Below, in pieces: positions 1,487-50,666 of a stretch of 64,000 bases of DNA. The stretch covers positions 7,461 to 71,460 of the forward strand of contig JBEVDR010000033.1 in the NCBI GenBank assembly GCA_040513215.1, in the 5' to 3' direction. The DNA is from Microbacteriaceae bacterium. GTDB taxonomy: Bacteria > Actinomycetota > Actinomycetes > Actinomycetales > Microbacteriaceae. The notes under the pieces were generated by a model. That model ran no database searches and had not been told where the DNA came from. It saw only the letters and a program-made list of their open reading frames with translations. Positions within the stretch are counted from its first letter, which is position 1. Every line of letters begins with the position of its first letter. The translations under genes were made by a program, and so were the position numbers.

Positions 1487-2491
1487 ATGACGAGTTCTCT
1501 TCGGGTTGGCTACGCCGCCATGCTCGAACAGTTTCACCCGATGGAGGCGGTCGAGCTCAGCCGCTACGCCGAGAGCAAGGGCTTCTCGGGGGTGATGGCG
1601 ACCGACCACTACCAGCCGTGGGTTCCGCAGCAGGGGCAGAGCTCGTTCGTCTGGAACGTGCTCACCGCGATCGGCGAGCGCACCACCGGCGACATGGGGC
1701 CGGGCGTCAGCACGCCCACCTTCCGCTGGCATCCCGCCATGGTGGCACAGGCGAGCGCGACCCTCGGCGCTATGTATCCCGGCCGGCACTGGCTCGGCAT
1801 CGGCTCCGGCGAGGCCATCAACGAGCACATCACCGGGCAGTACTGGCCGGAACCGCACGAACGCATCGACCGGATGTTCGAGGCCGTCGACATCATCAAG
1901 AAGCTGTTCGCGTCCGGGCTCTCCGGCCGCGACGTCAAACACCACGGTCAGTACTACAAGCTGGAGTCCACCCGGCTGTGGACCATGCCGGCAGTGGCGC
2001 CGGAGATCCTCGTCGCCACCGCAGGCCCGATCACCGCCAAGCGGGCAGGCAGGACCGTGGACGGCCTGATCACCGTGGGCGCGCCGGTGGAGAAACTGCA
2101 GATGCTGCTCAAGAAGTTCGCCGACGGCGCCAGGGAAGCCGGACGGGATGCGTCGCGAATGCCGAAGGCGCTCCAACTCCATCTGTCCTGGGCTGACACT
2201 GAGGAGGAAGCGATGCGGAACGCCCTCGTCGAGTGGCCGAACGGCGGGATGCGGTTCCCGAAGGGCGACATCCGCAGCCCGTTCGAACTGGAACAGATGG
2301 CCCGTCTGGTGCGCCCCGAGGACTTCGAGGGCCGCATGGTCATCTCGGCCGACCCCGACGTGCACCGCGCGCACATCCAGCGCTTCGCCGACCTCGGCTT
2401 CGACCGCATCTACCTGCACAACGTTGGCCGCAACCAGCGCGAGTGGATCGACGTGTTCGCCCGTGACGTGCTACCGAAACTGAGCCGCTGA
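1487..2491 (+). CDS. F420-dependent LLM-class oxidoreductase (G6PDH-like, TIGR03557-like family)
   Basis: Motifs [23 protein letters not shown] and [12 protein letters not shown]. Translationally coupled to cofE. Confidence 0.85.
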
Positions 2492-3285
2492 TGCTGACCA
2501 TCTTCACCCTGGACGCGATCCCCGAGGTCGTCGCCGGCGACGACCTCGCCGGCATCATCGGGCACGCCGCCGACGGCATGCTGCAGGATGGCGACATCCT
2601 CGCCGTCACCTCGAAGATCGTGTCCAAGGCGGAGGGCCGTCAGGTGGCCGCCGCCGACCGGGAACAGGCGATCACCGAGCAGACCGTGCGGATCGTGGCC
2701 ACCAAGCAGCACGGCCACGGCGTCACCCGGATCGTGGAGAACCCGCTCGGCCTGGTGCTGGCCGCCGCCGGAGTCGATGCCAGCAACACCCCGGCCGGCA
2801 CCATCCTGCTGCTGCCGGAGGATCCGGATGCCTCGGCCCTGGCGCTCTGCGCCGCACTGCGGGACCGGTTCGGGGTGCGTCTCGGCGTGATCATCACCGA
2901 CACGCTCGGTCGTGCGTGGCGGCAGGGACAGACGGATGTCGCGATCGGCGCCGCCGGCGTGCGGGTAATCGACGACCTGCGCGGCACCAGCGACGCCGGT
3001 GGACGCGTACTCGAGGCCACCCTCGCCGCGGTGGCCGACGAGATCGCCGGCGCGGCAGAACTGGTCAAGGGCAAGGCCTCCGGCCGCCCGGTCGCGGTGG
3101 TGCGCGGACTCGGGCAGTACGTGGGGGAGCTCGGCCTGCCCGGCGCCCACGCGCTGATCCGACCGGCCGCCGACGACCTGTTCCGCCTGGGCAGCGACGA
3201 AGCGCGAGCCGAGGGCCACGCCGAGGGCTACGCGGAGGGCCTGCACGACGGCGCCGCCGCGGCACGCCGCCAGCCCGCAGACTGA
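2491..3285 (+). CDS. cofE: Coenzyme F420-0:L-glutamate ligase (single domain, no nitroreductase domain)
   Basis: Motifs [62 protein letters not shown] and [14 protein letters not shown]. Confidence 0.93.
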
Positions 3286-7850: not shown

Positions 7851-8816
7851 ATGCTTACTCTGAGCCAGGTCGTGGCCAAGGACACCCGTCCCGCCTACCG
7901 CCCGTTCCGCGCCGCCGTCACCGGACTCACCCGGCTCAGCCCGCACTTCATGCGGGTCACCTTCAGTGGCCCCGACTTCGACCGGTTCGGTACCGACGGC
8001 CTGGATCAGCGGATCAAGATTGTGCTGCCGATCCCCGGAATCGGCCTCAGCGACTTCGGCGCCGACGATGCCGACACCGTCCTCGTTGGCGACTGGTACG
8101 CCCGCTGGCGGCAACTGTCCGACGAGATCCGGAACCCCTTCCGCACCTACACGGTGCGGGCGGTGCGGCCCGAGCTGCGCGAGCTCGACGTCGACATGGT
8201 GATGCATCCGGATGCCGTGGATGGCGCCCGCGGCCCGGCCGCCGAGTGGCTGTCCAGCGTCGGCATCGGTGGTCAGGTGGTCATCGTCGGGCCCGATTCC
8301 GGCAGCGTCGACTCCCACATCGGCATCGACTGGCACCCGGGTGATGCCAGCGAGGTGCTCCTCGCCGGTGATGAGACCGCGGCGCCGGCCATCTGCAGCG
8401 TGATCGAATCCCTGCCGGCTGGGGTGACCGCACATGCGTTCATCGAAGTTCCGGATGCCGCCGACCGGCTGCCACTGGACGTCGCCGACGGATGCACCGT
8501 CACCTGGCTCGCCCGCGACGGTGGCCAGGTGGGCTCCGTCCTGGAGCCCGCGGTGCGCGACTGGGTGAGTGCGCACCCGGCGGCGATCCGACCCGCGCTC
8601 ACGGCATCCGCCCAGTCCGTCGAAGACGTCGACGTCGACACGCAACTGCTGTGGGACTCACCGGCGCAGTCGCACGGCCAGTTCTACGCCTGGCTCGCCG
8701 GCGAGGCCGCGATGATCAAGACTCTGCGTCGGTTCCTGGTGACCGAGACCGGGATCGACCGGTCTCAAGTGGCGTTCATGGGCTACTGGCGGCACGGCAA
8801 GGCCGAAGCCCAGTAA
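7851..8816 (+). CDS. Siderophore-interacting protein (ViuB/SIP family)
   Basis: Motifs LSPHFMRVTF, DQRIKI, RTYTVR, LAGDETAAPA, WLAGEA and FMGYWR. Confidence 0.92.
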   Translation: MLTLSQVVAKDTRPAYRPFRAAVTGLTRLSPHFMRVTFSGPDFDRFGTDGLDQRIKIVLPIPGIGLSDFGADDADTVLVGDWYARWRQLSDEIRNPFRTYTVRAVRPELRELDVDMVMHPDAVDGARGPAAEWLSSVGIGGQVVIVGPDSGSVDSHIGIDWHPGDASEVLLAGDETAAPAICSVIESLPAGVTAHAFIEVPDAADRLPLDVADGCTVTWLARDGGQVGSVLEPAVRDWVSAHPAAIRPALTASAQSVEDVDVDTQLLWDSPAQSHGQFYAWLAGEAAMIKTLRRFLVTETGIDRSQVAFMGYWRHGKAEAQ

Positions 8817-9865
8817 TGGCGCTGCCGCTCGCGCGGCCGGCCGCCGCCCCGCTCGCGGGCCGTGATCGGTCGCGGCATCGGGTACTCGGACTGCTCGTGG
8901 CGCTCGGCGTGCTGCTGCTCGTCGTGATGCTGAGCCTGGCGCTCGGGGCACGCGATGTGGCGCTCGGCAGCGTGTTCGATGCCGTGTTCGCCCCGATCCC
9001 GGGTAACACCGACCACGTGGTGGTGCGCGATCTCCGGGTGCCGAGAACGGTGGTCGGAATCGTGGCGGGCGCCTGCCTCGGACTTGCCGGCGCCATCATG
9101 CAGGGAATCACCCGCAATCCGATCGCCGATCCGGGGCTGCTCGGAGTGAACTCCGGGGCATCGCTGTGTGTGGTGCTCGCCATCGCGCTCTTCGGTATCA
9201 CGGCGCCGTCGGGCTACATCTGGTTCGCCCTCGCCGGGGCGGCGATTGCCGCCAGCATCGTCTACGGGATCGGCGCGATCGGCCGAGAAGGCGCCACACC
9301 CGTGAAACTGGCGTTGGCCGGCACCGCGCTCACCGCCGGCCTTACCTCGATCATCACGCTGCTGCTGATCACCGACGTGGACACGCTCGGCACCTTCCGG
9401 TTCTGGTCGGTCGGATCGCTGGCGAACCGCGATCTCGGCATTGTCCAGGCGCTGCTGCCGTTCGTGATCGTCGGGGTCGTGCTCGCTGCCCTGGTGGGGC
9501 GCATGCTCAACCTGCTGGCACTCGGCGACGACCTGGCGCGCGGGCTCGGTCAGAACATCGCCGTGGCGCGCGTGTTCTCGGGGCTCGCGATCGTGCTGCT
9601 CTGCGGCTCGGCCACCGCGCTCGCCGGCCCGATCGTGTTCGTCGGCCTCGTGATACCGCACCTGGTGCGCCCGTTCACCGGACCGGACTATCGCTGGATC
9701 CTGGCGTACTCGGCGGTACTCGGACCCGCGCTGCTGCTCACCGCCGACGTCATCGGCCGCCTGGTGGTGCGCCCCGGTGAGCTCGAGGCGAGCCTCGTGG
9801 TGGCACTGATCGGTGCCCCGGTGATGATCGCCCTGGTGCGCCGCGTGAAGCTGGCCGGACTGTGA
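8816..9865 (+). CDS. Iron-siderophore ABC transporter permease (FecCD family)
   Basis: Motifs LRVPRT, QGITRNPIADPGLLGVNSGA and GPIVFVGLVIPH. TAATG overlap with the SIP gene. Confidence 0.92.
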   Translation: MALPLARPAAAPLAGRDRSRHRVLGLLVALGVLLLVVMLSLALGARDVALGSVFDAVFAPIPGNTDHVVVRDLRVPRTVVGIVAGACLGLAGAIMQGITRNPIADPGLLGVNSGASLCVVLAIALFGITAPSGYIWFALAGAAIAASIVYGIGAIGREGATPVKLALAGTALTAGLTSIITLLLITDVDTLGTFRFWSVGSLANRDLGIVQALLPFVIVGVVLAALVGRMLNLLALGDDLARGLGQNIAVARVFSGLAIVLLCGSATALAGPIVFVGLVIPHLVRPFTGPDYRWILAYSAVLGPALLLTADVIGRLVVRPGELEASLVVALIGAPVMIALVRRVKLAGL

Positions 9866-10911
9866 CCGTGACCACGGAGGTGCCGAGCACGCTGTGGCGG
9901 GATGACCGAACCCACCGGAGGCGACGCGCCACCCGGATCAGTCTCACCCTCACCGCGCTCGTGCTGCTGGTCGCCGCCGGGAGTCTTGCCATCGGCGCCT
10001 ACACGCTGCCGCTGCCCGACGTGATCACCACCCTGGCCGGGCAGGGCGAGGCCCGCGACAACTTCATCGTCTTCGGCCTGCGCCTGCCGCGGCTGCTGCT
10101 CGGCGCGCTCGTCGGCGCGGCCTTCGCGATATCCGGAGCCCTGTTCCAGACGCTGCTGAAGAACCCGCTCGCCAGCCCCGACATCATCGGCATCAGTGGG
10201 GGAGCGAGCGCCGCCGCGGCGTACAGCATCCTGTTCCTGGGCCTCAGCGGAGCGGCCGTGCCGCTCGCCGCCTTCCTCGGGGCGCTGGCTGCGGCAACCG
10301 CGATCTACCTGCTCGCCTGGCGGGGCGGCGTCACCGGCTACCGGTTCGTGCTGATCGGCGTCGGAGTGGCGTTCATGATGCAGGCCGTGCTCGGCTACCT
10401 GATCACCCGCGGCGACGTGCGCGACGTGCAGCAGGCGCTGGTGTGGATGGTGGGCGGCATCGGCGGCGCCAGCTGGGTCGACATCGTCGTGCTCGCCCTC
10501 ACGCTGGCCGTACTGCTGCCGGCGGTAGGCCTGTTCGTCCCGCGGATACGGATGCTGCAACTCGGCGACGACACGGCGGGCGGTCTCGGGGTGCGCGTCG
10601 AATCGACCAGGCTCACCCTGCTCGTGATCGCCGTCGCGCTCGCCGCGGTGACCACCGCGTTCGCCGGTCCGGTCGCGTTCGTCGCGTTCGTGTCGGCGCC
10701 GATCGCCAGACGGCTGATCGGCACCGGATCGCTCGCGCTGGTGCCGAGCGCGCTGGTCGGCATCCTGCTGGTCACCGCCGCCGACTTCGTGGCGCAGCAC
10801 CTGCTGCCCGGCACCCTGCAGGTCCCGGTCGGCATTATCACCGGCGTCGTCGGTGCCCCATACCTGCTGTGGCTGCTGGCCACCGCCAACAGGAGAGGAC
10901 GCGGCGCATGA
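9862..10911 (+). CDS. Iron-siderophore ABC transporter permease (FecCD family)
   Basis: Motifs LRLPR, QTLLKNPLASPDIIG, GPVAFVAF and PVGIITG. Confidence 0.92.
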   Translation: MTVTTEVPSTLWRDDRTHRRRRATRISLTLTALVLLVAAGSLAIGAYTLPLPDVITTLAGQGEARDNFIVFGLRLPRLLLGALVGAAFAISGALFQTLLKNPLASPDIIGISGGASAAAAYSILFLGLSGAAVPLAAFLGALAAATAIYLLAWRGGVTGYRFVLIGVGVAFMMQAVLGYLITRGDVRDVQQALVWMVGGIGGASWVDIVVLALTLAVLLPAVGLFVPRIRMLQLGDDTAGGLGVRVESTRLTLLVIAVALAAVTTAFAGPVAFVAFVSAPIARRLIGTGSLALVPSALVGILLVTAADFVAQHLLPGTLQVPVGIITGVVGAPYLLWLLATANRRGRGA

Positions 10912-11735
10912 CGGATGCGGCAGTCACCCGGAAGCCTCGCCACACGCTGCGGGCCGAGAAACTCGGGCTCGGCTACGACGGTCGGTCGATCATCAGCGAC
11001 CTCGACCTCACCGTTGCCGAGGGGCAGGTCACCGTGATCGTGGGCGCCAACGCGAGTGGCAAATCAACCCTGCTGCGGGGCATCTCGCGGCTGTTGAAAC
11101 CGGCGTCCGGACGGGTGACCCTGGACGGCCGCGACATCCACACGCAGGCCGCGAAAGACGTGGCGCGCACGGTCGGCATCCTGCCGCAGTCGCCGACGGC
11201 GCCGGAGGGCATCACCGTCGCCGACCTGGTCGGGCGTGGCCGATACCCGCATCAAGGCTGGTTCCGGCAGTGGACCAGCACGGATGACGCGCAGGTGACC
11301 GAGGCGCTGCGTGCGACCGACACCGCGCAGCTCGCCAGCCGGCGCATCGAGGAACTCTCTGGCGGTCAGCGCCAGCGGGTGTGGATCGCGATGGTGCTGG
11401 CGCAGGATCCCGACATCCTGCTGCTGGACGAGCCGACCACCTATCTCGACGTGACCCACCAGATCGAGGTGCTCGACCTGCTCACGGACCTCAACCGCAG
11501 CCGCGGCACCACCGTGGTGATGGTGCTGCACGACCTGAACATGGCCGCGCGCTATGCCGACCACATCGTGGTGATGGCGGCCGGCCAGATCATTGCCAGC
11601 GGCCCGCCGGTCGAGGTGATCTCAGCGGAGCTGGTGCAGAGCGCCTTCGCGCTGGAATCGCGCGTGATCGTCGACCCGGTGTGCGGGGCGCCGATGGTGG
11701 TGCCGGTGGGACGGTTCCACGGCGGGACCGTCTAG
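10908..11735 (+). CDS. Iron-siderophore ABC transporter ATP-binding protein
   Basis: Motifs GANASGKST, LSGGQRQRVWIA, LLDEPT and VLHDLN. ATGA overlap at 10908. Confidence 0.92.
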   Translation: MTDAAVTRKPRHTLRAEKLGLGYDGRSIISDLDLTVAEGQVTVIVGANASGKSTLLRGISRLLKPASGRVTLDGRDIHTQAAKDVARTVGILPQSPTAPEGITVADLVGRGRYPHQGWFRQWTSTDDAQVTEALRATDTAQLASRRIEELSGGQRQRVWIAMVLAQDPDILLLDEPTTYLDVTHQIEVLDLLTDLNRSRGTTVVMVLHDLNMAARYADHIVVMAAGQIIASGPPVEVISAELVQSAFALESRVIVDPVCGAPMVVPVGRFHGGTV

Positions 11736-11736
11736 C

Positions 11737-12330
11737 TCAGAACCACGCCGGTCGGTCGGCGACGAACTGCTCCGGCCGGATCAGCGGCTGCGCACGCGCC
11801 ACGGCGAGGTTGATCCTGGTGAGCAGCTCGGGGTTTGACACCCGGTAGTTGGTGAAGTCGGAGTCGCAGGCGTACACGCCGAGCGGCAGCGTCACCGCCT
11901 GGAAGAACCCGAACAGCGGCCGCAACTGGTGCTCGATGATGAGGGCGTGCCGGTCGCTGCCTCCGGTGGCGGCGAGCAGCACCGGCGTGTCGACGAGGTC
12001 GTACTGGCCGACGAAGTCGAACAGGTGCTTGAACAGGCCGCTGAACGAGGCACGATACACCGGGCTCGCGACCACGAGAAGGTCGGCCGTCTCGATGCGG
12101 CGCAGCTCCTCTTCGACCGATTCGGGCAGCTGCGTGCGGCTGATGGCCCCGGCGAGATCAGGGCCGATCCGTTCGAGCTCGACCAGGTGAGGGTCGATGG
12201 GGCGTTCCCTGGCGAGGCTGGCGATGATCTCGGTGACCAGCGCTGTCGTCTTCGAAGGGGACTGCAGGCTGCCCGAGACGCCCACCACAGAAAGCGGGCG
12301 GTCGAGGGTGCTGGTCGGTACGGATGCCAT
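11737..12330 (-). CDS. NAD(P)H-dependent FMN reductase (MsuE/SsuE-like)
   Basis: Motifs VSGSLQSPSKT, SPVYRASFSGLFKHLFD and ATGGSDRHALIIEHQLRPLF. Confidence 0.88.
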   Translation of the reverse strand: MASVPTSTLDRPLSVVGVSGSLQSPSKTTALVTEIIASLARERPIDPHLVELERIGPDLAGAISRTQLPESVEEELRRIETADLLVVASPVYRASFSGLFKHLFDFVGQYDLVDTPVLLAATGGSDRHALIIEHQLRPLFGFFQAVTLPLGVYACDSDFTNYRVSNPELLTRINLAVARAQPLIRPEQFVADRPAWF

Positions 12331-12568: not shown

Positions 12569-13531
12569 TCAGAGCGCTCGCAGCTTCTCCAGCAGTGGAC
12601 CGGCGGCGGTGTCGAGGAACTCCTGCTGGGTTTCGTCGCCGATCTGCACCAAGGCGATGTCGGTGAAGCCTGCGGTCACGAACGGCCGGAAGCTGTCGGC
12701 GATCTCGTCGAGGTCGGGGCCGCATGCGATGCTCGCCGCGACATCCTCTGGCCGCACGAAGGCGCTCGCCCCGGTGAACCCCGCCGGGGTCGGCAGGTCG
12801 GCATTCACCCGCCAGCCGCCGCCGAACCAGCGGAACTGGTCGTGAGCGCGGGCGATTGCGGCATCTTTGTCCCGGTCCCAGCAGATGGGAAGCTGCCCCA
12901 TCGACCGGGCCTGCGGATTCTGCTCGCGCCAGCCGTCGACCAGCGTCTTATCCGGCTGGGTTGCGATCACGTGGTCGCCGAGCGGGGCGAACATCGACAC
13001 GGATTTGTCGCCGGAGACGGCCACGGCGATCGGCACGCCCTCATCCGGAACATCCCAGATGCGGGCAGAGTCAACACGGAAGTACTCGCCCTGCCAGGTG
13101 ACCAGCTCACCGCCGTGCAGCGCGCGGATCACCGAGATCGCCTCGGCCAGCATGTTCTGGCGAACATCAACCGACGGCCAGCCCTCGCCGATGACATGCT
13201 CATTGAGGTTCTCACCGGATCCGAGGCCGAGGATGAAGCGACCGTCGCCCAGTAGCTGCAGGGTGGCAGCCTTCTGCGCCACCACCGCTGGGTGGTAGCG
13301 CATGGTCGGGCAGGTGATGTACGTCGCGATCTCCACCCGTTCGGTGGCGTGCGCGACCGCACCGAGCACCGACCAGGCGTATGGCGAGTGCCCCTGCGCG
13401 ACGAGCCAGGGGGAGTAGTGGTCGCTGCACACTTCGAAGTCGAAACCCACGCGCTCTGCCGCGATGGCGTAGCGCACGAGCTCCTTCGGGCCGCTCTGCT
13501 CGCTCATCAGGGTGTAGCCGAATCGTGTCAT
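12569..13531 (-). CDS. F420-dependent LLM-class oxidoreductase (TIGR03557-like)
   Basis: Motifs GYTLMSEQSGP, SDHYSPW, YHPAVVAQKAATL and LGLGSGENLNEH. Confidence 0.87.
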   Translation of the reverse strand: MTRFGYTLMSEQSGPKELVRYAIAAERVGFDFEVCSDHYSPWLVAQGHSPYAWSVLGAVAHATERVEIATYITCPTMRYHPAVVAQKAATLQLLGDGRFILGLGSGENLNEHVIGEGWPSVDVRQNMLAEAISVIRALHGGELVTWQGEYFRVDSARIWDVPDEGVPIAVAVSGDKSVSMFAPLGDHVIATQPDKTLVDGWREQNPQARSMGQLPICWDRDKDAAIARAHDQFRWFGGGWRVNADLPTPAGFTGASAFVRPEDVAASIACGPDLDEIADSFRPFVTAGFTDIALVQIGDETQQEFLDTAAGPLLEKLRAL

Positions 13532-13694: not shown

Positions 13695-14708
13695 GTGACC
13701 GTACGTCCCCTCGCGATCGTCGCCGCTCTCACGGCGTCGATGCTGGCCATCACCGGATGCGCCACCGCCAACTCGTCCGACGCTGACAGTGGGTCGGGCG
13801 GTGACTTCAGCCCCGTTAGCATCGAGCACGCGTTCGGTGAGACCGAGATCAGCGCGGCGCCCGAACGGGTGGTGACGCTCGGTTGGGGCAGCACCGATGC
13901 CGCGCTCGCGCTCGACGTGGTCCCCGTGGCCATGGAAGCACAGAGCTACGCCGGCGACGAGAACGGCGTGCTGCCCTGGGTGGCCGAGAAGCTCGACGCG
14001 ATGGGGGAAGAGACCCCCACGGTGATCCCCGAATCCACCGAGGCGCCCGCCTACGAGCAGATCGCCGAGGCGGCACCCGACCTGATCCTGGCCGTCTACT
14101 CCGGCATCACCGAGGAACAGTACGCCCTGCTGAGCGAGATCGCGCCGACCGTGGCGTACCCCGACGAGGCGTGGGCGACGCCGTGGCGCGATGTGATCAG
14201 CACGGTCGGCGACGCGCTCGGCAAGTCGGCCGAGGCAGACGCCGTGCTCGCTGAGATCGACGCCGTCGTCGACGAGCAGGCGGCAGCCCATCCGGAGCTT
14301 GCGGGCAAGACTGTCGCGGCCGTCTGGGATGTCGGCGGAACCTTCTACGTGTACAAGCCGGCTGACCCGCGGGTGGCGTTCCTGCTCGACCTCGGCATGG
14401 TGAGCGCTCCCGCCGTGGACGAGCTCGCCAGCGGCGACTCGACGTTCTACTACACGCTGAGCTATGAGCAGCTCGACAAGCTTGAGGCCGACATCCTGGT
14501 GAACTACGCCGATGACGACGCGGCGGCCGAGGCGTTCCTCGCGGCCAGCTACGCGCAGGCGATCCCCGCAGTAGAGGCGGGCACGGTGGCCTCGGTCACC
14601 GGCACCCAGTTGGTCTCCTCGGTCTCCCCGCCCACGGCACTGTCGCTCACCTGGGGTATCGACGAGTACGTCGCGGCGCTGGCCAGCGCGGCCGCGGCCA
14701 CTAAGTAG
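13695..14708 (+). CDS. Iron-siderophore ABC transporter substrate-binding lipoprotein
   Basis: Lipobox ITGC; motifs IEHAFGET, PERVVTLGW and EQIAEAAPDLIL; SD AAGGAG. Confidence 0.9.
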   Translation: MTVRPLAIVAALTASMLAITGCATANSSDADSGSGGDFSPVSIEHAFGETEISAAPERVVTLGWGSTDAALALDVVPVAMEAQSYAGDENGVLPWVAEKLDAMGEETPTVIPESTEAPAYEQIAEAAPDLILAVYSGITEEQYALLSEIAPTVAYPDEAWATPWRDVISTVGDALGKSAEADAVLAEIDAVVDEQAAAHPELAGKTVAAVWDVGGTFYVYKPADPRVAFLLDLGMVSAPAVDELASGDSTFYYTLSYEQLDKLEADILVNYADDDAAAEAFLAASYAQAIPAVEAGTVASVTGTQLVSSVSPPTALSLTWGIDEYVAALASAAAATK

Positions 14709-14777
14709 CGAGGTAGCGCGCGAGCGACCAGCGGATGCTCGTCTCCTTGGCGCCCACAAGTTGGTAGTCTCAAGGGG

Positions 14778-15434
14778 ATGTCAGCCCGCTGGTCGCTCGT
14801 ACTCCCGGTGAAGGGAGCCAATGGCAAATCCCGGCTGACCCTGCCGGATCACCACCTGCGTTCTCCGCTCGCCGTCGCGTTCGCGCTGGACGCGCTCGAC
14901 GCGGTGCTCGGCGCCGCATCGGTCGGCCGCGTGATCGTGGTGACCTCGGATGCGGCGGTCAGTAGCGCGCTCCGCGAAACCAGGGCCGAGCTCGTGCCCG
15001 ACCCCGGCGAGGGGTTGAACGCCGCGATCCGCGCCGGCCTTGCGGTGCTCGCCCCCGCGGATCCCGCCGTGCGCGACGCTTCGTACTCCGCAGTGCTCGC
15101 GCCCTCGCAGCCCGCCGGCGTGCTGCTCGCCGATCTGCCCGCGCTCACCGCCGCAGACCTCGACGCCGCGCTCGCTACAGTGGCGACCCACCCGCTTGCG
15201 CTGGTGCCCGATGCCGACGGCACTGGGTCCACCCTGATCACCGCGCAGCGAGTCGGCGACCTGGTGCCCCGGTTCGGCGTGGGATCGAGGGCCGCCCACG
15301 AGAAGGCCGGTCACGTCCCGATCGAGCTGCCCGCGGCATCCGGTCTCCGCCGCGACGTCGACAGTGAGTCCGACCTGAACCAGGCGCTCGCCCTGGGCGT
15401 CGGCCGGCACACGAGAGCCGCGCTCGACCTCTAG
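14778..15434 (+). CDS. cofC: 2-phospho-L-lactate/PEP guanylyltransferase (CofC/FbiD)
   Basis: Motifs PVK...KSRL, GLNAA, ADLPAL, DGTGST, FGVGS..H and RRDVD. Confidence 0.9.
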   Translation: MSARWSLVLPVKGANGKSRLTLPDHHLRSPLAVAFALDALDAVLGAASVGRVIVVTSDAAVSSALRETRAELVPDPGEGLNAAIRAGLAVLAPADPAVRDASYSAVLAPSQPAGVLLADLPALTAADLDAALATVATHPLALVPDADGTGSTLITAQRVGDLVPRFGVGSRAAHEKAGHVPIELPAASGLRRDVDSESDLNQALALGVGRHTRAALDL

Positions 15435-15467
15435 CTGTTCGCAGAGCTCACCACAAGGATGGCGGGA

Positions 15468-16436
15468 TCAGTGGGCGCCGAGCCCCAGCTCCACGGCCGC
15501 CCTGACGATCGCGGCCGACTCCTCGAGTGTGGTCAGGTACAGCGGTCTCGCCGCCGCCCGCATCCCGGACGCCGCGAGATCGTCGACGACCGCGGCATCC
15601 GCGCTGTCCACCAGCCAGCCATCGAGCAGTCCGCCCGCAGACCGGGCTCCGTAGTGGCGCGCCACCGCATCCGCGCTCACCTGAACCCCGATCGCGGCCA
15701 GGCACTCGGCCGCCATCCCGCGTAGGGCGGCGCCGCCAATGATCGGTGACACGCCCACGACCGGCGCCGCGGTGCCGGCGAGCGCCGTCCGCATGCCCGG
15801 CACGCCGAGGATCGTCCCGATCGACACCACCGGGTTCGACGGGGCGAGCAGCACCACGTCCGCATCGGCGATCGCCGCGAGCACCTCCGGGGTGGGCTTT
15901 GCCGATTCCACCCCCACCTGCTCGAAGCCGAGCGCCGGGACGGCCGCCCGGGTCCGAACCCACCACTCCTCGAAGTGGATCAGCCCATCCGCGACCCGCA
16001 CGTGCGTCTCCACCGGCTGATCGCTCATCGGCAGCAGGGTCACGCCGAGCGGCCAGCGCGCGGCGAGCCGCTGGGTCGCCGCGGTGAGGCTCAGCCCGTC
16101 GCGCAGCAGGCTGGTGCGGGCCAGGTGTGTGCCGAGATCCAGGTCGCCGAGCGTGAACCAGGGCCAACCGAGCCCGTATGCCGCCAACTCCGCCGACACC
16201 CGTTCGCTCTCACCCGCGCGTCCCCAGCCGCGGTCGGTGTCGTTCACGCCGGCCAGCGCGTACATGATCGAGTCGAGGTCGGGGCAGACCCGCACCCCGG
16301 TCAGCCACAGGTCGTCGCCGGTGTTGACGACAACGCGGATGTCGGCATCCGGCATCGCGTGCCGCACGCCGCGCACGAACTTGGCGCCGCCGACGCCGCC
16401 GGCCAGCACAGTGATTCTGACGGGTCCAGCGATCAC
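15468..16436 (-). CDS. cofD: 2-phospho-L-lactate transferase (CofD/FbiA)
   Basis: Motifs LAGGVGGAKF, NTGDD, CPDLD, WFTLGDLDLGTH, LLPMSD, HFEEWWV and PSNPVVSIG. Confidence 0.95.
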   Translation of the reverse strand: MIAGPVRITVLAGGVGGAKFVRGVRHAMPDADIRVVVNTGDDLWLTGVRVCPDLDSIMYALAGVNDTDRGWGRAGESERVSAELAAYGLGWPWFTLGDLDLGTHLARTSLLRDGLSLTAATQRLAARWPLGVTLLPMSDQPVETHVRVADGLIHFEEWWVRTRAAVPALGFEQVGVESAKPTPEVLAAIADADVVLLAPSNPVVSIGTILGVPGMRTALAGTAAPVVGVSPIIGGAALRGMAAECLAAIGVQVSADAVARHYGARSAGGLLDGWLVDSADAAVVDDLAASGMRAAARPLYLTTLEESAAIVRAAVELGLGAH

Positions 16437-17230
16437 GAGTCCTCCTCGGGGGCGAATGCGATGACCGGTCGCCCGGTCCCGGGGTGCTGCAGCACGGTGG
16501 CCTGCACCCCGTACACGTCGTGGATGATCGGGGCGGTCAGCACCTCGCCGGGGGAGCCCGCGGCGACCACCCGTCCGTCGGCGAGTACGACGACGTGGTC
16601 GGCGTAGGTGGCGGCGAGGGTCAGGTCGTGCAGTGCAGCGACCACGGTCACCGAGTTCCGCGCCATCCGACGCAGCAGCGCCAGCGTCGACAATTGGGCG
16701 CGGATGTCGAGATGGTTCGTCGGCTCGTCGAGCAGCATCAGCTGAGGCTGCTGCGCGAGCGCCCGCGCCAGGTGCACCCTCTGCCGCTCACCGCCGGACA
16801 ACGAATCGAACAGCCGATCGGCGAAGCCATCCATCCCCACCGTGGCCAGCGCCTCCGTCACCACCGCGCCATCATCACCGGCGGATGCAGCGAGCATCGG
16901 CCGATGCGGAGTCCTGCCGAGCTCGACCGCGTCCCGCACACTCAGGCTGGACTCGGCGCTGAGCTCCTGCTCTACCACCGCAACCAGGCGCGCGCGGGCA
17001 CGCCGGCCGAGCTGCAGCAGGTCGTCGCGGTCGAACCGCACGCTGCCGGCCGACAGCGGCAGCAGCCCCGCCACCCCGCGCAACAGCGTGGTCTTGCCGG
17101 CACCGTTCGGACCGACGAGCGCGGTCACCGAACCTCCCGGTGCGGTCAGGTCGACGCCATCGATGATGCTGCGGCCGCCGAGGCTCATCCGCACCCCGCG
17201 CAGGGCAAGGCCGATCGAACCAGCGCTCAT
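16433..17230 (-). CDS. ABC transporter ATP-binding protein (putative Fo/F420-0 importer)
   Basis: Motifs GPNGAGKTT, LSGGERQR and LDEPTNHLD. Overlaps the cofD start. Confidence 0.85.
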   Translation of the reverse strand: MSAGSIGLALRGVRMSLGGRSIIDGVDLTAPGGSVTALVGPNGAGKTTLLRGVAGLLPLSAGSVRFDRDDLLQLGRRARARLVAVVEQELSAESSLSVRDAVELGRTPHRPMLAASAGDDGAVVTEALATVGMDGFADRLFDSLSGGERQRVHLARALAQQPQLMLLDEPTNHLDIRAQLSTLALLRRMARNSVTVVAALHDLTLAATYADHVVVLADGRVVAAGSPGEVLTAPIIHDVYGVQATVLQHPGTGRPVIAFAPEEDS

Positions 17231-18270
17231 CGAGTGCTCCGCCTCGCCAGCAGCGCCGCGAACACCGGAGCGCCCACGATTGCCGTGACGATGCCCACCG
17301 GCAACTCCCGCGGGTCGAACAGGGTGCGCGCCACGGTATCGGCCCAGATCAGCACGATCGCGCCGGTCAGCGCCACCAGCGGCAGCAGCAGCCGATGCCG
17401 TGCCCCGGTGAGCAACCGCACCGCGTGCGGCAGAACCAGTCCGATGAAGCCGATAGAGCCGCTCACCGACACCATCGCGCCGGTGAGCAGGGCGGTCACC
17501 GCCAGCAGCGTCCACCGGGTGGCCGCCACATTCACACCCAGGGCGGCCGCCGTGGTGTCGCCGAACGCGAACGCGTCGAGCAGCCGACCACTGAACAGCA
17601 CCGGCACGCCGATGACCAGCACCGCCGTGCCGGCGATCGCAACCGTGGTCCAGTCCGACCCGCTCAGCGAGCCGAGCAGCCAGTTCAGGATCTCACGGAA
17701 CGAATCGCCCTGCGCCGACCAGAAGATCACGAAGCTCGTCAGCGCTGCCGCGAGCGCCGACACGGCGACACCGGCGAGCACCGTGCGCGTCGGGGTGAGG
17801 ACGCCGGATGCGCCGGCCAGCAGCAGCGTAGCCAGCAGCGCGGCCAACGCCCCCACAAACGCGGCGATCGGCAGCAGCACGCCGAGCCCGAGCAGCAGCA
17901 CGCTGACCGCGCCAAGCGACGCCCCGGACGACAGGCCCAGCAGATACGGGTCGGCCAAAGGGTTGCGGGTGAGCGCTTGCATCACAGCCCCGCTCAGCGC
18001 CAGGCCCGCGCCCACCGCCGCCGCCGTGAGCACGCGCGGCAAGCGCAGCTCCCAGACGATCCCGTCGCGCAACACACTGAGCGGGCTGTCGCCCAGCCCG
18101 AGGTGGGCGGCCACACTCGCGAACACGTCGGCCGGGCGGATGTCGGCGGCGCCGAAGCAGATCGCGGCGACAATCGACGCCACGAGCAACGCGCTCAGCA
18201 GCACGCCCCAACCCCAGGGCGAGGCCCGGCGCCGGCCGGTGGCGGGCCTGTGCTGTGTCGTGTCCGTCAT
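17227..18270 (-). CDS. FecCD-type ABC permease (putative Fo/F420-0 importer)
   Basis: Motifs ELRLPRV, QALTRNPLADPYLLG, GSIGFIGL and ELPVG. In an operon with cofD. Confidence 0.85.
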   Translation of the reverse strand: MTDTTQHRPATGRRRASPWGWGVLLSALLVASIVAAICFGAADIRPADVFASVAAHLGLGDSPLSVLRDGIVWELRLPRVLTAAAVGAGLALSGAVMQALTRNPLADPYLLGLSSGASLGAVSVLLLGLGVLLPIAAFVGALAALLATLLLAGASGVLTPTRTVLAGVAVSALAAALTSFVIFWSAQGDSFREILNWLLGSLSGSDWTTVAIAGTAVLVIGVPVLFSGRLLDAFAFGDTTAAALGVNVAATRWTLLAVTALLTGAMVSVSGSIGFIGLVLPHAVRLLTGARHRLLLPLVALTGAIVLIWADTVARTLFDPRELPVGIVTAIVGAPVFAALLARRSTR

Positions 18271-18274
18271 CTGG

Positions 18275-19264
18275 TTAGCGGGCATCCAGCGCGGCCAGCT
18301 GGTCGAGGATCGAGGCCACCGCCTCCACATTCCGCACCCCGGCCTCACCGGCCGCGAACGGCACCGTGATGAACCGCCGCTCGGCCACCGCGTCCAGTTG
18401 CGCGGTCACCGGATTGGCGGTGAGCATCTCGATCTTCGACGCGGCCGTGTTCCAGCTCGCGTCCACCAGCACGATCACGTCGGGGTTGGCATCGATGATC
18501 GACTCCCAGCCGAGCGAGGCCCAGGTGTCGTTGACGTCGGCGGCCACGTTCGTGAGCCCTGCGGCATCCAGCATCATCTGGGGTGCGCCGATGCCCGCCC
18601 CGACATACGGGGTGTCCGTGCCCGAGGAGTACCAGAGCGCGGTCAGGCCGTCGGTCGAGGGCGACAGCGCTTCGAGCGCCCCCTGCTGCTCGGCCACCAG
18701 CTCCTCGGCCGCGTCTTCGGCGCCGAACACGGTGCCGGCCTCACGGATCTCGTCGAAGACCAGGTCGAAGGTGAGCTTCTCCGGCTTGTACCCGGGCTCC
18801 TTGCAGGCGGAGGGGGACACATAGCTGCCGATACCGAGCGATGCGAGAGCGTCCCGTTCGCCCGCGGTGTCGGACTTCAGGTTCGACTCCCAGCCGGCGT
18901 AGATGAAGTCGGGTTCGAGATCGAGCACCGCCTCCTGGGCGGGAGCGAAGTCACTGATCACCGGGATGTCGGCCGCCTCGACTGCCCACTGGTCGGGCAC
19001 TGGGCCGTCGGGGAAGGCCGTGCCGATGATCCGGTCGCCGAGCCCCAGGGCCAACAGCATCTCGGTCGTCGAGGACTTGATGGTGAGGATGCGCTCGGCG
19101 GGGCGCTCCACCGTCAGTTCGAAGCCGCAGTTGTCGATGGTCACCGGCACGGATGGGGTTGATGAGGTGGCCGGGCTCGAGGCTGGTGCCGTCGAGGCCG
19201 AACACCCGGTCAGGGCTACCGCGACGACCGCGAGAGAGAGCAGGGCATGGGGACGACGGGACAC
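18275..19264 (-). CDS. ABC substrate-binding lipoprotein, resembling the proposed F420-0 transporter family (TIGR03868-like)
   Basis: Lipobox LTGC; motifs DNCG, IKSSTTEMLLALG, AGWESN, SPSACK, PYVGAGIGAPQ and EAGVRN. First gene of the operon ending in cofD. Confidence 0.82.
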   Translation of the reverse strand: MSRRPHALLSLAVVAVALTGCSASTAPASSPATSSTPSVPVTIDNCGFELTVERPAERILTIKSSTTEMLLALGLGDRIIGTAFPDGPVPDQWAVEAADIPVISDFAPAQEAVLDLEPDFIYAGWESNLKSDTAGERDALASLGIGSYVSPSACKEPGYKPEKLTFDLVFDEIREAGTVFGAEDAAEELVAEQQGALEALSPSTDGLTALWYSSGTDTPYVGAGIGAPQMMLDAAGLTNVAADVNDTWASLGWESIIDANPDVIVLVDASWNTAASKIEMLTANPVTAQLDAVAERRFITVPFAAGEAGVRNVEAVASILDQLAALDAR

Positions 19265-19508
19265 AGGACTCCTTGTGGCTGGCTACGAATAGTCCGCGGG
19301 CTCAAGCTGCCGCGAACTCGAACCAGCTGCTTCAGCGCGAAGTCAGCGCACCGTGCCATACCGGCGCGGGGGTCGAGGTAAGGGATACGTTACTCGGTAT
19401 GTGCATGATCCGCGGTAGCGCAGGGCTTGTAGAGCCGCGTCGCCACGTCTAGGTTTACGCCAACGTCATATGCCGAACTGACTGAGAAATCTTTACGGCG
19501 CATGATGA

Positions 19509-19534
19509 CAGAACTAACAACGAGGTTTGTTCTG
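19509..19534. promoter_or_regulatory. Imperfect inverted repeat CAGAACTAAC-N6-GTTTGTTCTG; candidate operator for the pyrimidine operon
   Basis: 9 of 10 arm positions are complementary; lies in the AT-rich divergent intergenic region. Confidence 0.45.
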
Positions 19535-19591
19535 AAACAAGCATCTGGCACGGTGTGACTGTTTGCCGGGGGCCCTGAGCGCGGAGGCAAC

Positions 19592-20440
19592 ATGACGGTT
19601 GTACGAGCAGCGATCACCCAGACCACCTGGACCGGCGACAAGGAGTCGATGATCCAGAAGCACGAGCAGTTCGCGCGCGACGCGGCCGCCCAGGGTGCTC
19701 AAGTCATCTGCTTCCAGGAACTGTTCTACGGACCGTACTTCGGTATCACCGAAGACCCCAAGTACTACGAGTATGCCGAGCCGGCAGACGGGCCGATCGT
19801 GCAGCGATTCGCGAAACTCGCCAAGGAACTGGGCATGGTCATGGTGCTGCCGATCTACGAGGAGGACCAGCCAGGCGTCTACTACAACACCGCGGTGGTC
19901 GTCGACTCCGACGGCAGCATCCTCGGCAAGTACCGCAAGCACCACATCCCCAACCTCGACAAGTTCTGGGAGAAGTTCTACTTCCGGCCGGGCAACCTCG
20001 GCTACCCGGTGTTCAAGACAGCCGTCGGTCCAATCGGCGTGTACATCTGTTACGACCGGCATTTCCCAGAGGGATGGCGCGAACTCGGGCTGAATGGCGC
20101 CCAGATCGTCTTCAACCCGAATGCCACCAAGCCAGGGCTCTCGAACCGGCTCTGGCAGCTCGAGCAGCCGGCCGCGGCGGCCGCGAACGGCTATTTCGTG
20201 GCAGCCCCGAACCGCGTCGGAACCGAGGACAACGAGTACGGCGACCTCGCCGTGAATTTCTACGGTTCGAGCCAGTTCGTCGATCCGCAGGGCAACCTCG
20301 TGGGCGAGTACGGCAGCGACAGTGACGAGGAAGTGGTCATCCGCGACCTCGACCTCGACATGATCCGGAAGGTGCGCAACAACTGGCAGTTCTATCGCGA
20401 CCGCCGCCCCGAGTCCTACACGTCGATCCCGAAGCCGTAA
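19592..20440 (+). CDS. Nitrilase-family carbon-nitrogen hydrolase, likely beta-ureidopropionase
   Basis: Glu-Lys-Cys triad motifs FQELF, YRKHHIP and ICYDRHFPEG; also WEKFYFRPGN and FYRDRRP. Adjacent to dihydropyrimidinase. Confidence 0.85.
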   Translation: MTVVRAAITQTTWTGDKESMIQKHEQFARDAAAQGAQVICFQELFYGPYFGITEDPKYYEYAEPADGPIVQRFAKLAKELGMVMVLPIYEEDQPGVYYNTAVVVDSDGSILGKYRKHHIPNLDKFWEKFYFRPGNLGYPVFKTAVGPIGVYICYDRHFPEGWRELGLNGAQIVFNPNATKPGLSNRLWQLEQPAAAAANGYFVAAPNRVGTEDNEYGDLAVNFYGSSQFVDPQGNLVGEYGSDSDEEVVIRDLDLDMIRKVRNNWQFYRDRRPESYTSIPKP

Positions 20441-20457
20441 AGAAGCCGGATAGGGGA

Positions 20458-21897
20458 ATGACCGTGAAGACTCTTATCAAGAACGGCACCGTCGTCAACG
20501 CCACCGGAACTGCAGCCGCCGACATCCTGATCGACGGCGGCACCATCGCCGCCGTGCTGGCGCCCGGATCCACCCTGCTCGGCTTCGACGTGGAGAACAA
20601 CGTCGACACCGTGATCGACGCCAACGGCAAGTACGTGATTCCCGGCGGCATCGACGCGCACACCCACATGCAGCTGCCGTTCGGCGGCACCGAGGCATCC
20701 GACACCTTCGAGACCGGCACCAGGGCGGCCGCCCACGGCGGAACCACCTCGATCATCGACTTCGCCGTGCAGGTCTACGGCCAGCGCCTCGAAGACGGCC
20801 TCGCGGCGTGGCACGAGAAAGCCACCGGCAACTGCGCGATCGACTACGGGTTCCACCAGATCGTCGGGGATGTCACCCCCGACTCGCTCCAGGCGCTGAA
20901 GCGCCTGCCCGACGAGGGCATCAGCAGTTACAAGATGTTCATGGCCTACCCGGGAGTGTTCTACTCGGATGACGCGCAGGTCCTGAAGGCGATGCAGGTG
21001 GCGCGCGAGGCCGGCATGCTGACGATGATGCACGCCGAGAACGGCCCGGCGATCGACGTGCTCGCCCAGCAGCTGGTCGAACAGGGCAACACCGACCCGT
21101 ACTACCACGGCATCGCCCGCGCCTGGGAGCTCGAGGAAGAGGCGACGCACCGCGCGATCATGCTCGCGAAGCTCACCGGAGCGCCGCTGTACGTCGTGCA
21201 CGTGTCGGCGAAGCAGGCAGTTGAACAGATCGCCTGGGCGCGGAACAACGGGCAGAACGTCTTCGGTGAGACCTGTCCGCAGTACCTCTACCTGTCGCTG
21301 GAAGACCAGCTCGGGGCATCAAGTGACGAGTGGGGCAAGTTCGAGGGCGCCAAGTGGGTGTGCTCGACGCCCCTGCGGAGCCGCGCCGAGGGTCACCAGG
21401 ATTCGATGTGGCAGGCGCTTCGCACGAACGACCTGCAGACGGTGTCGACCGACCACTGCCCCTTCTGCATGAAGGACCAGAAGGAGCTCGGACTCGGCGA
21501 CTTCCGGAAGATCCCGAACGGCATCGGCGGGATCGAGCATCGGATGGACCTGATGTACCAGGGCGTCGTCACCGGGGAGATCACCCTGGAACGCTGGGTG
21601 GAGCTCACCAGCACAACACCTGCCCGCATGTTCGGCATGTACGGCAAGAAGGGCGTCATCCAGCCCGGCGCCGACGCCGACATCGTGATCTACGACCCGA
21701 ACGGGCACACCTCGATCGGGATCGGCAAGACCCACCACATGAACATGGACTACTCCGCCTGGGAGGGCTACGAGATCGACGGTCACGTCGACACCGTGCT
21801 GTCCCGCGGCCGCATCATCGTCGACGACAACCAGTACGTCGGACGCAAGGGCGACGGTGAATTCATCAAACGTGGCCTCAACCAGTACCTGATCTAG
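20458..21897 (+). CDS. hydA: Dihydropyrimidinase
   Basis: Motifs PGGIDAHTH, YKMFMAY, MMHAEN, YVVHVS, ETCPQY, STDHCPF and KIPNG. Confidence 0.92.
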   Translation: MTVKTLIKNGTVVNATGTAAADILIDGGTIAAVLAPGSTLLGFDVENNVDTVIDANGKYVIPGGIDAHTHMQLPFGGTEASDTFETGTRAAAHGGTTSIIDFAVQVYGQRLEDGLAAWHEKATGNCAIDYGFHQIVGDVTPDSLQALKRLPDEGISSYKMFMAYPGVFYSDDAQVLKAMQVAREAGMLTMMHAENGPAIDVLAQQLVEQGNTDPYYHGIARAWELEEEATHRAIMLAKLTGAPLYVVHVSAKQAVEQIAWARNNGQNVFGETCPQYLYLSLEDQLGASSDEWGKFEGAKWVCSTPLRSRAEGHQDSMWQALRTNDLQTVSTDHCPFCMKDQKELGLGDFRKIPNGIGGIEHRMDLMYQGVVTGEITLERWVELTSTTPARMFGMYGKKGVIQPGADADIVIYDPNGHTSIGIGKTHHMNMDYSAWEGYEIDGHVDTVLSRGRIIVDDNQYVGRKGDGEFIKRGLNQYLI

Positions 21898-21905
21898 GGA
21901 GAGCC

Positions 21906-22922
21906 ATGGATTTCGGAGTAGTACTGCAGACCAACCCGCCGGCCTCACGCACCGTGCACTTGGCGAAACTCGCCGAGCAGTACGGGTTCACTCACGCCTG
22001 GACCTTCGACTCTCACCTGCTCTGGCAGGAGCCGTACGTGATCTACAGCCAGATCCTGGCCGAGACCACGCGCATCACGGTCGGGCCCATGGTCACCAAC
22101 CCGGCCACCCGCGACTGGACGGTCACCGCGTCGCTGTACGCCACCCTCAACGACATGTACGGCAACCGCACGATCTGCGGCATCGGCCGCGGAGACTCCG
22201 CAGTGCGGGTCACCGGCGGCGAGCCCACGACGCTGAAGACACTGCGCGAATCGATCCACATCATCCGCGAGCTGGCGAACAGCAGACCGGTCGAGTACCA
22301 CGGGTCGACCCTCCAGTTCCCCTGGAGCCGCGGCTCACAGCTGGACATCTGGGTGGCGGCCTACGGACCACTGGCGCTGAAGCTGGCCGGCGAGGTGGGG
22401 GACGGCTTCATCCTGCAACTGGCCGACCTCGACATCGCGAGCTGGATGATCAAGACGGTTCGGGATGCCGCCCAGGCGGCGGGCCGCGACCCGATGTCCG
22501 TGAAATTCTGCGTGGCCGCCCCGATGTACGTCGGCGACGACCTGCCGCACATGCGCGATCAGACACGCTGGTTCGGCGGCATGGTGGGCAACCACGTCGC
22601 CGACATCGTGGCCAAGTACGGAGAGCACGGCGCCGTTCCCGAGGCGCTCACCGACTACATCCGAGGCCGGCAGGACTACGACTACAACGAACACGGCCAG
22701 GCCGGGAACGTGCACACCCAGTTCGTGCCAGACGAGATCGTCGACCGGTTCTGCGTGCTCGGCACCGCCGACCAGCACATCGAGAAGCTGAAGGCGCTGA
22801 AAGACTTGGGCGTCGACCACTTCGCCGGATACCTGCAGCATGACAATAAAGAGGAGACCCTGCGGGTCTACGGCGAGACCGTGATCCCGACGCTCAGAGA
22901 GCACATCGTGGCCAAGGCATGA
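21906..22922 (+). CDS. F420-dependent LLM-class oxidoreductase (TIGR03842-like)
   Basis: Motifs MDFGVVLQT, WTFDSHLLWQEP, VTNPATRD, GIGRGDSA and YDYNEHG. Confidence 0.82.
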   Translation: MDFGVVLQTNPPASRTVHLAKLAEQYGFTHAWTFDSHLLWQEPYVIYSQILAETTRITVGPMVTNPATRDWTVTASLYATLNDMYGNRTICGIGRGDSAVRVTGGEPTTLKTLRESIHIIRELANSRPVEYHGSTLQFPWSRGSQLDIWVAAYGPLALKLAGEVGDGFILQLADLDIASWMIKTVRDAAQAAGRDPMSVKFCVAAPMYVGDDLPHMRDQTRWFGGMVGNHVADIVAKYGEHGAVPEALTDYIRGRQDYDYNEHGQAGNVHTQFVPDEIVDRFCVLGTADQHIEKLKALKDLGVDHFAGYLQHDNKEETLRVYGETVIPTLREHIVAKA

Positions 22923-49871: not shown

Positions 49872-50666
49872 GTGACCAGCCCGACTCATCAGCGCCCGAT
49901 CCGTCTGGGCGTTCAGATCGCCCCGCAGCACGCCTCGTACCCGCAGATCCGCGACGCCGTTCGCCGGCTCGAAGACCTCGGCGTCGACATCCTGTTCAAC
50001 TGGGATCACTTCTTCCCGCTCTCCGGCGACCGCGAGGGCAGGCACTTCGAGGCCTGGACCATGCTCGGGGGCTGGGCCGAGCAGACCGAGCGGGCGCAGA
50101 TCGGCACGCTCGTGAACTGCAATAGCTACCGCAACGCCAACCTGCAGGCCGACATGGCACGCACCCTCGATCACATGTCGAACGGCCGGTTCATCTTCGG
50201 CACCGGCGCCGGCTGGTTCCAGCGGGACTACGACGAGTACGGCTACGAGTTCGGCACCCCCGGCACCCGACTCGCCGCCCTCGCTGAGGCGATGCCGGTG
50301 ATCCAGAACCGCTGGGCGGTGATCAACCCGCCACCGGTGCACAGGATCCCGGTGCTGATCGGCGGCGCGGGCGAGCGCAAGACGCTCCGCATCGTGGCGC
50401 AGCACGCCGACATCTGGCACAGCTTCGGCGACGCCGATGTGCTGCGCCACAAACTCGGCGTGCTGCGCGAGCACAGCAAGGCGGTCGGCCGTGACGTCAG
50501 CGAGATCGAGATCTCCACCGAGATCCGACGGCGCACCGAATCGGATGCCGACGCCCTGGTCGATCTCGGAGCATCACTGTTCACGCTCGGCATCACCGCG
50601 CCGGAGTTCAACTTCGACGCGGTGAAACGCTGGCTCACCTGGCGGGACGCCCGCAACCGCGGCTAG
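49872..50666 (+). CDS. F420-dependent LLM-class oxidoreductase (TIGR03856-like)
   Basis: Motifs GVQIAPQH, FNWDHFFPL, NSYRN, GAGWFQRDYDEYG and IGGAGERKTL. Confidence 0.82.
   Translation: MTSPTHQRPIRLGVQIAPQHASYPQIRDAVRRLEDLGVDILFNWDHFFPLSGDREGRHFEAWTMLGGWAEQTERAQIGTLVNCNSYRNANLQADMARTLDHMSNGRFIFGTGAGWFQRDYDEYGYEFGTPGTRLAALAEAMPVIQNRWAVINPPPVHRIPVLIGGAGERKTLRIVAQHADIWHSFGDADVLRHKLGVLREHSKAVGRDVSEIEISTEIRRRTESDADALVDLGASLFTLGITAPEFNFDAVKRWLTWRDARNRG

Follow-up and report, generated by a model that had tools for sequence, protein, structure and literature searches.

The closest described relative of the system considered here is the putative F420-0 ATP-binding cassette (ABC) transporter of TIGRFAMs/NCBIfam (TIGR03868, TIGR03869 and TIGR03873), whose families are hypothetical equivalogs named from gene context only, and whose founding genomes are not known to keep any gene of F420 biosynthesis other than cofE. 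The system in question occupies positions 14778–19264 of a 64,000-nucleotide stretch of DNA from a Microbacteriaceae bacterium (the window, meaning the whole stretch that was analysed), where the genes of such an importer run directly into cofD, whose product acts on the deazaflavin Fo. It resembles the putative F420-0 transporter in having the same three genes in the same order, with the binding protein and permease scoring above the cut-offs, in having a binding protein that falls within the clade of the founders, and in residing in a host that has cofE and an FGD-type gene and is without Fo synthase. It differs in that cofD lies inside the operon and in that cofC and cofD are kept, both here and in about half of the sampled members. 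Literature searches on the cassette, its accessions, and Fo or F420 uptake, salvage or riboswitches found no paper or experiment, and the words uptake, salvage and scavenging are absent from a 2021 review of F420. The cofD-fused form of the cassette, with the Fo uptake that it implies, is a variant of which we found no description in the literature.

Several better known systems share some of these features. BtuFCD with the cobalamin riboswitch, and the riboflavin importers with the flavin mononucleotide (FMN) riboswitch, are vitamin-type type II ABC importers under riboswitch control; the present locus is like them in its class III binding-protein fold, its FecCD permease, its predicted import of a cofactor or precursor and its structured 5' leader, and unlike them in that the leader has no Rfam match, the transporter operon takes in the gene of a biosynthetic enzyme, and the ligands are putative. 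In folate salvage, a cofactor with a short tail or none is imported and then polyglutamylated inside the cell for retention. The likeness is one of analogy only, since glutamates are added within the cell in both cases, while the cofactor is a different one and the enzymes are unrelated; by this analogy, retention through the glutamate tail would explain why 78 of 79 importer-bearing genomes of the order have cofE. Finally, in comparison with the mycobacterial FbiC-FbiD-FbiA-FbiB pathway (PMC8498797, PMC7253369), CofD is FbiA-like with both aspartates in place, and CofC and the CofE N-terminal domain have homologous counterparts, whereas here there is no FbiC and no match to the FbiB C-terminal dehydro-F420-0 reductase domain, and Fo would be external.

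From its gene content and context, we consider it likely that the locus is a deazaflavin salvage operon in a genome unable to make Fo. In the mechanism we propose, a surface lipoprotein would capture an extracellular 8-hydroxy-5-deazaflavin compound, which the FecCD-type permease and the ATPase would bring inside. CofD, translated from the same message by way of a GTGA overlap, would link Fo, once inside, with the activated phospho-acid that CofC supplies, CofE would add glutamates, and an FGD-family enzyme would reduce the finished F420 for use by luciferase-like monooxygenase (LLM) and FDOR enzymes. A leader RNA probably switches the operon according to cofactor supply.

The importer–cofD operon

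The genes in this region were identified by profile searches (Pfam, TIGRFAMs/NCBIfam) judged against curated cut-offs. The source assembly comprises 2.57 Mb in 215 contigs and is 82.7% complete, and the window comes from contig 33.

18275–19264, minus strand: substrate-binding lipoprotein (TIGR03868, 471.8 bits against a cut-off of 392.4; PF01497)
17227–18270, minus strand: FecCD-type permease (TIGR03869, 492.8 bits against a cut-off of 437.35; PF01032)
16433–17230, minus strand: ABC ATPase (TIGR03873, 354.7 bits, 18 bits below the cut-off of 372.4)
15468–16436, minus strand: cofD/fbiA, Fo phospho-transferase (TIGR01819, 343.6 bits against a cut-off of 257.45)
14778–15434, plus strand: cofC/fbiD guanylyltransferase, convergent with cofD (TIGR03552, 119.6 bits against a cut-off of 105)

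For the ATPase, TIGR03873 ranks first among 189 families, and the gene occupies the ATPase position of the cassette. Reading the junctions directly, we found that the binding-protein gene has a GTG start preceded by AAGGAG and encodes the lipobox LTGC, that the permease ATG lies 4 nt past the binding-protein stop codon, that the ATPase ATG overlaps the permease stop codon as ATGA, and that the cofD GTG overlaps the ATPase stop codon as GTGA (4 bp), with GAGGAGGA upstream of the cofD start. The binding protein, permease, ATPase and cofD are thus one tightly coupled minus-strand operon. A sequence-only reading of this DNA had described the same operon, including the 4-bp overlap between the ATPase gene and cofD and a cofC gene converging on it, and the profile matches and junctions bear this description out: the cofC and cofD stop codons face one another with 33 nt between them. 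Promoter and terminator consensus scans over 14500–19700 returned no match.

This arrangement recurs elsewhere. We compared about 20 kb around each cassette, 87 of them orthologous and 9 paralogous. At least one cof gene was present at 71 of the former and at none of the latter; cofE was present at 65 of the 87, an FGD-like LLM gene at 59 and cofD at 26, and in 18 of these 26 cofD lay directly behind the ATPase gene on the same strand. Of a further 80 named loci, which formed a second set, 37 had cofD within the operon; these include Cellulomonas, Demequina, Pengzhenrongella, Leifsonia, Agromyces, Marisediminicola, Arenivirga, Naasia and Cellulosimicrobium. The presence of cofD inside the operon argues that what is required is Fo rather than F420-0.

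A separate siderophore-type system lies close by on the plus strand (7851–11735 and 13695–14708) and could be confused with the F420-linked cassette. It comprises a siderophore-interacting flavin adenine dinucleotide protein, two permeases of the FecCD type with an ATPase, and a second binding protein of the Peripla_BP_2 family, the gene for which stops 70 nt before cofC.

Fo synthase and the demand for F420

The CofG and CofH models had no match in any part of the assembly (2.57 Mb, 82.7% complete). In view of its incompleteness, we extended the CofH search to 40 relatives. In three genomes of the same genus (G001–G003), which are 98–99% complete, two of them as single contigs, and which all carry the same operon, there was no CofH or FbiC match, while the same search recovered FbiC in 7 other relatives. 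The sequence-only reading had found no fbiC, cofG or cofH gene in the window and had proposed looking for them genome-wide; the absence holds for the window, for the rest of this assembly and for the three near-complete congeners.

In parallel, cofD and cofC are intact. CofD is nearest to M. smegmatis FbiA (6UVX, 314 bits), and its GDD and CPDLD motifs align with Asp45 and Asp57, the metal-binding residues named for FbiA in PMC8498797. Across the FbiC-less genus and a neighbouring genus, the ratio of nonsynonymous to synonymous substitution rates was 0.16–0.33 for cofD and 0.26–0.50 for cofC, values like those of the transporter genes, which indicates that both genes are under purifying selection in a genus that has no FbiC. 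Since enzymes whose sole known substrate is Fo are maintained where there is no Fo synthase, this genome would need external Fo, and the importer would be the obvious route for it. The earlier proposal that the organism depends on exogenous Fo is in this way supported by the missing synthase in the genome and three congeners and by the selection on cofC and cofD.

We then looked across the order, using an even sample of 401 genomes. The importer, scored as a binding protein above the cut-off, was present in 79. Among these, 77 had no CofH or FbiC match of any kind, 78 had cofE, 42 had cofD and 37 did not. A CofH match was found in 2 of the 79 importer genomes (G312 and G423) as against 103 of the 322 genomes without an importer. 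The importer and Fo synthase are therefore nearly mutually exclusive across the order. The same split can be seen within a single genus, where one genome has the importer and cofD without FbiC, and six have FbiC and cofD without a true importer. The pattern of a host with cofE only does not describe this genome, which has both cofC and cofD, nor the other importer genomes that have cofD.

These counts bear on two further explanations. According to the first, Fo is made in the cell after all, either by a synthase encoded in the 17% that the assembly lacks or by an enzyme without homology to it, and the importer only recaptures leaked cofactor. The incompleteness of the assembly and the FbiC-like genes of G312 and G423 speak for it; however, with no match in three congeners that are nearly complete, with 77 of 79 importer genomes lacking the synthase and with no alternative Fo synthase known to us, we regard it as very unlikely. 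According to the second, the cassette imports a siderophore, heme, B12 or riboflavin, and its F420 neighbours are incidental. Fold relatives of the binding protein do bind siderophores, heme and B12, and a true siderophore system lies 4–10 kb away in the window, but such a ligand would leave unexplained the difference in cof genes between orthologous and paralogous loci (71/87 versus 0/9), the near-exclusion of importer and Fo synthase, and the presence of cofE in all but one of the importer genomes, making this explanation extremely improbable.

In a separate observation from the survey, 43 genomes of families f10 and f24 have a cofE-like gene scoring near or below the cut-off (about 177 bits in one case) and have neither cofD, FbiC nor importer; this low-scoring gene may be a CofE paralogue with another role.

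The genome also has genes through which F420 would be completed and used. Those in the window are:

1487–2491, plus strand: FGD-family F420-dependent LLM oxidoreductase, overlapping the cofE start (TIGR03557, 268 bits)
2491–3285, plus strand: cofE, gamma-glutamyl ligase, single domain (TIGR01916, 231 bits)
12569–13531, minus strand: F420-class LLM oxidoreductase, F420 consumer or reducer (TIGR03557, 488.9 bits)
21906–22922, plus strand: F420-class LLM oxidoreductase, adjoining a dihydropyrimidinase gene (TIGR03842, 588 bits)
49872–50666, plus strand: F420-class LLM oxidoreductase (TIGR03856, 363.9 bits)

The cofE gene at 2491 and the four LLM genes are those that the sequence-only reading had listed. 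The FGD-family enzyme at 1487–2491 is probably the F420 reducer, and an LLM gene paired with cofE in this way is also found next to the importer at 59–65 of the 87 related loci. Together with two FDOR-A genes elsewhere in the genome, outside the window, the four LLM genes indicate that the genome has a demand for F420. No deazaflavin photolyase, a possible second consumer of Fo, was found in the 82.7%-complete assembly.

Two of the LLM genes have suggestive neighbours. On the plus strand at 19592–22922, genes for a carbon-nitrogen hydrolase that resembles beta-ureidopropionase, for a dihydropyrimidinase (TIGR02033, 558 bits) and for the TIGR03842 LLM stand in a row, and the LLM enzyme might replace dihydropyrimidine dehydrogenase in reductive pyrimidine breakdown. 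An MsuE-type FMN reductase gene (11737–12330, minus strand; TIGR03566, 251 bits) adjoins the TIGR03557 LLM gene at 12569–13531.

Ligands of the importer

Given the gene content and context set out above, Fo must be a physiological substrate in this genome. Fo is known from the supernatants of cultures, and a role for it as a secreted vitamin has been discussed (PMC11104420). The importer family as a whole most likely recognises the deazaflavin head group and accepts Fo together with F420-0 and F420-n, with each genome keeping the enzymes that it needs; we favour such broad recognition because close orthologues serve genomes with cofE only. No single narrow ligand fits the survey: in 40 FbiC-less genomes, cofC and cofD would serve no purpose if F420-0 or F420-n were imported, and in the 37 genomes that lack cofD, import of Fo would be useless. 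The sequence-only reading had argued that importing F420-0 would idle cofC and cofD and had concluded that the ligand is Fo. Its logic is upheld, and strengthened by the purifying selection on both genes and by the exclusion between importer and Fo synthase. As for the ligand, the part that stands is that Fo uptake would be required here, in a genome with an intact cofD and no Fo synthase; restriction to Fo does not stand, given the orthologues in 37 of 79 importer genomes.

Some of the data weigh against salvage of Fo by this importer. Those 37 cofD-less genomes mean that Fo cannot be the sole ligand of the family, and the assembly itself is only 82.7% complete. In addition, 45 of the 187 cofD-positive genomes in the survey have neither FbiC nor the importer, and Fo evidently enters by other routes too. 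At six such loci (L189–L194, one of them unscanned), a conserved GT2 glycosyltransferase gene stands beside cofD-cofE in three; among the flanking genes scanned there was no transporter and no radical-SAM enzyme, with 4 of 7 flanking open reading frames lacking a Pfam match. Finally, the reduction of dehydro-F420-0 does not appear to be accounted for by any match to the FbiB C-terminal domain. CofE matches NF009810 only over profile positions 13–257 of 449, and TIGR03553 had no match in this genome; CofE is thus without this reductase domain, and there was no above-cut-off match to the domain in the six genomes checked (G000, G002, G003, G009, G012 and G035): this genome, two congeners and one FbiC-positive relative had no matches at all, and two further FbiC-positive genomes had only matches far below the cut-off. 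Because FbiC-positive genomes share it, this gap is a feature of the whole group rather than of salvage.

The 45 genomes also bear on an alternative, in line with what the database first proposed, in which the importer carries F420-0 or F420-n only, Fo arrives by diffusion or through another carrier, and the linkage to cofD reflects shared regulation. This is consistent with the 37 importer genomes that lack cofD and are restricted to F420-0 or F420-n, and with the binding protein itself, in which conservation reaches 95% or more at 63 columns, five tryptophans among them, when both kinds of genome are taken together. If the cofactor were imported in finished form, however, cofC and cofD would have nothing to do, although purifying selection acts on both in the FbiC-less genus; cofD is also translationally coupled with the ATPase gene at dozens of loci, which belong to several families. 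We therefore think this alternative unlikely and prefer broad deazaflavin recognition that includes Fo.

A related possibility is that one clade holds two specificities, the proteins of cofD-linked operons binding Fo and those of cofE-only genomes binding F420-n. On the tree, the binding proteins group into a single clade of 88 (Shimodaira–Hasegawa approximate likelihood ratio test, SH-aLRT, 99), apart from the paralogues, and this clade holds the founders (Jonesia 4MLZ and PHSC20C1). Within it, genomes with and without cofD are intermingled, the state having changed at least 6–10 times, and the basal branches belong to genomes that have cofD. The protein encoded here matches 4MLZ, the Jonesia denitrificans orthologue, with 308 bits in sequence, and an AlphaFold 2 model of it (predicted local distance difference test score, pLDDT, 89) has 4MLZ as its best fold match (template modelling score, TM, 0.84–0.92); literature searches found no publication for this structural-genomics entry.

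One position in the binding protein follows the two kinds of genome. Residue 269 (window positions about 18458–18460, minus strand) ends the strand 263–269, next to two invariant residues, D268 and W271. Of 48 cofD-positive genomes, 39 have Ala at this position, and of 40 cofD-less ones, 37 have Ser; in the second locus set, 34 of 37 cofD-operon loci have Ala, and 4MLZ, from the cofE-only Jonesia, aligns a Ser there. Against this, exceptions occur in both directions, a test on independent pairs was non-significant, and contact of this residue with the ligand is putative. A division of the clade into two specificities is thus conceivable, though we hold it to be doubtful beside a single, broad recognition of deazaflavins. 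As a specificity switch, Ala/Ser269 was kept as no more than a lead, since its strong raw association came down to 2–3 independent pairs changing in the same way and 0 in the opposite way. Phe/Leu at residue 180, considered as a specificity determinant, gave no signal.

F420 has generally been treated as a cofactor made by its users. In about 19% of the sampled species of this order (77/401), the importer is found in place of Fo synthase, and about half of these keep enzymes that require Fo. On the reading favoured here, Fo and F420 would be exchanged as public goods in soil and water communities, and an importer of Fo would serve F420-dependent biocatalysis in hosts unable to make it. Vitamin-like scavenging of the F420 core, and its control, are now open to testing with material at hand: the solved structure of an orthologue (4MLZ), strains of each genome type that are named and in culture, a residue that may determine specificity, and a well-supported RNA motif as the possible sensor.

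A structured leader RNA upstream of the importer

Comparison of the regions upstream of the importer revealed a structured element of about 65 nt, in which the hairpins P1 and P2 meet the closing stem P0 at a junction.

19316–19382, minus strand: three-stem (three-way junction) leader RNA, ending about 50 nt upstream of the binding-protein start codon

We searched for it with covariance models (R1–R3), the later model being iterated. In 141 whole Microbacteriaceae genomes, there was one match per genome in 26, of which 22 lay directly upstream of the importer gene; the four that did not were the weakest of the 26. In locus searches, the iterated model found the element at the expected place, directly upstream of the binding-protein gene, in 26 of 28 and 56 of 57 cases. 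It also found it at the same position in at least three further families (f14, f15 and f19), which, judged by named loci, include Cellulomonadaceae and Demequina. In total, at least five families have the element directly in front of the importer. The leader is present in Georgenia, Mycetocola, Okibacterium and PHSC20C1 as well, and occurs in both cofD-positive and cofD-less genomes.

Support for the structure comes from covariation. Across 53 distinct leader sequences, compensatory changes were seen in 20 of 21 pairs, and 89.9% of cells were paired, in an alignment fitted to the model and so somewhat favouring the structure. In controls, slid alignments were at most 48% paired, and not one shuffle out of 500 came up to the values observed; when 13 leader sequences were aligned with MAFFT, the same helices emerged. 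Folding of the single sequence was non-significant (z = -1.19), and in this fold the 3' strand of P0 can instead pair with downstream sequence, an alternative pairing that hints at an expression platform.

Searched against Rfam 15, the window had no match at the gathering score and the part 19200–19650 had none at E values up to 1, and the leader matched neither the FMN nor the cobalamin riboswitch family in Rfam. With a covariation-supported structure located 5' of the importer gene, as expected of a riboswitch, the leader is a candidate riboswitch or cis-regulator of the importer operon. We tentatively raise the further idea, which we think less probable than otherwise, that it is a new riboswitch class sensing Fo or F420 and controlling the first dedicated deazaflavin importer, such that Fo and F420 would be shared vitamins for which about one-fifth of the species in the order depend on their neighbours. 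Examples of the leader can be seen at L015:9259–9327, L018:9281–9349, L111:5868–5937 and L166:5877–5943, and at about 50 other loci.

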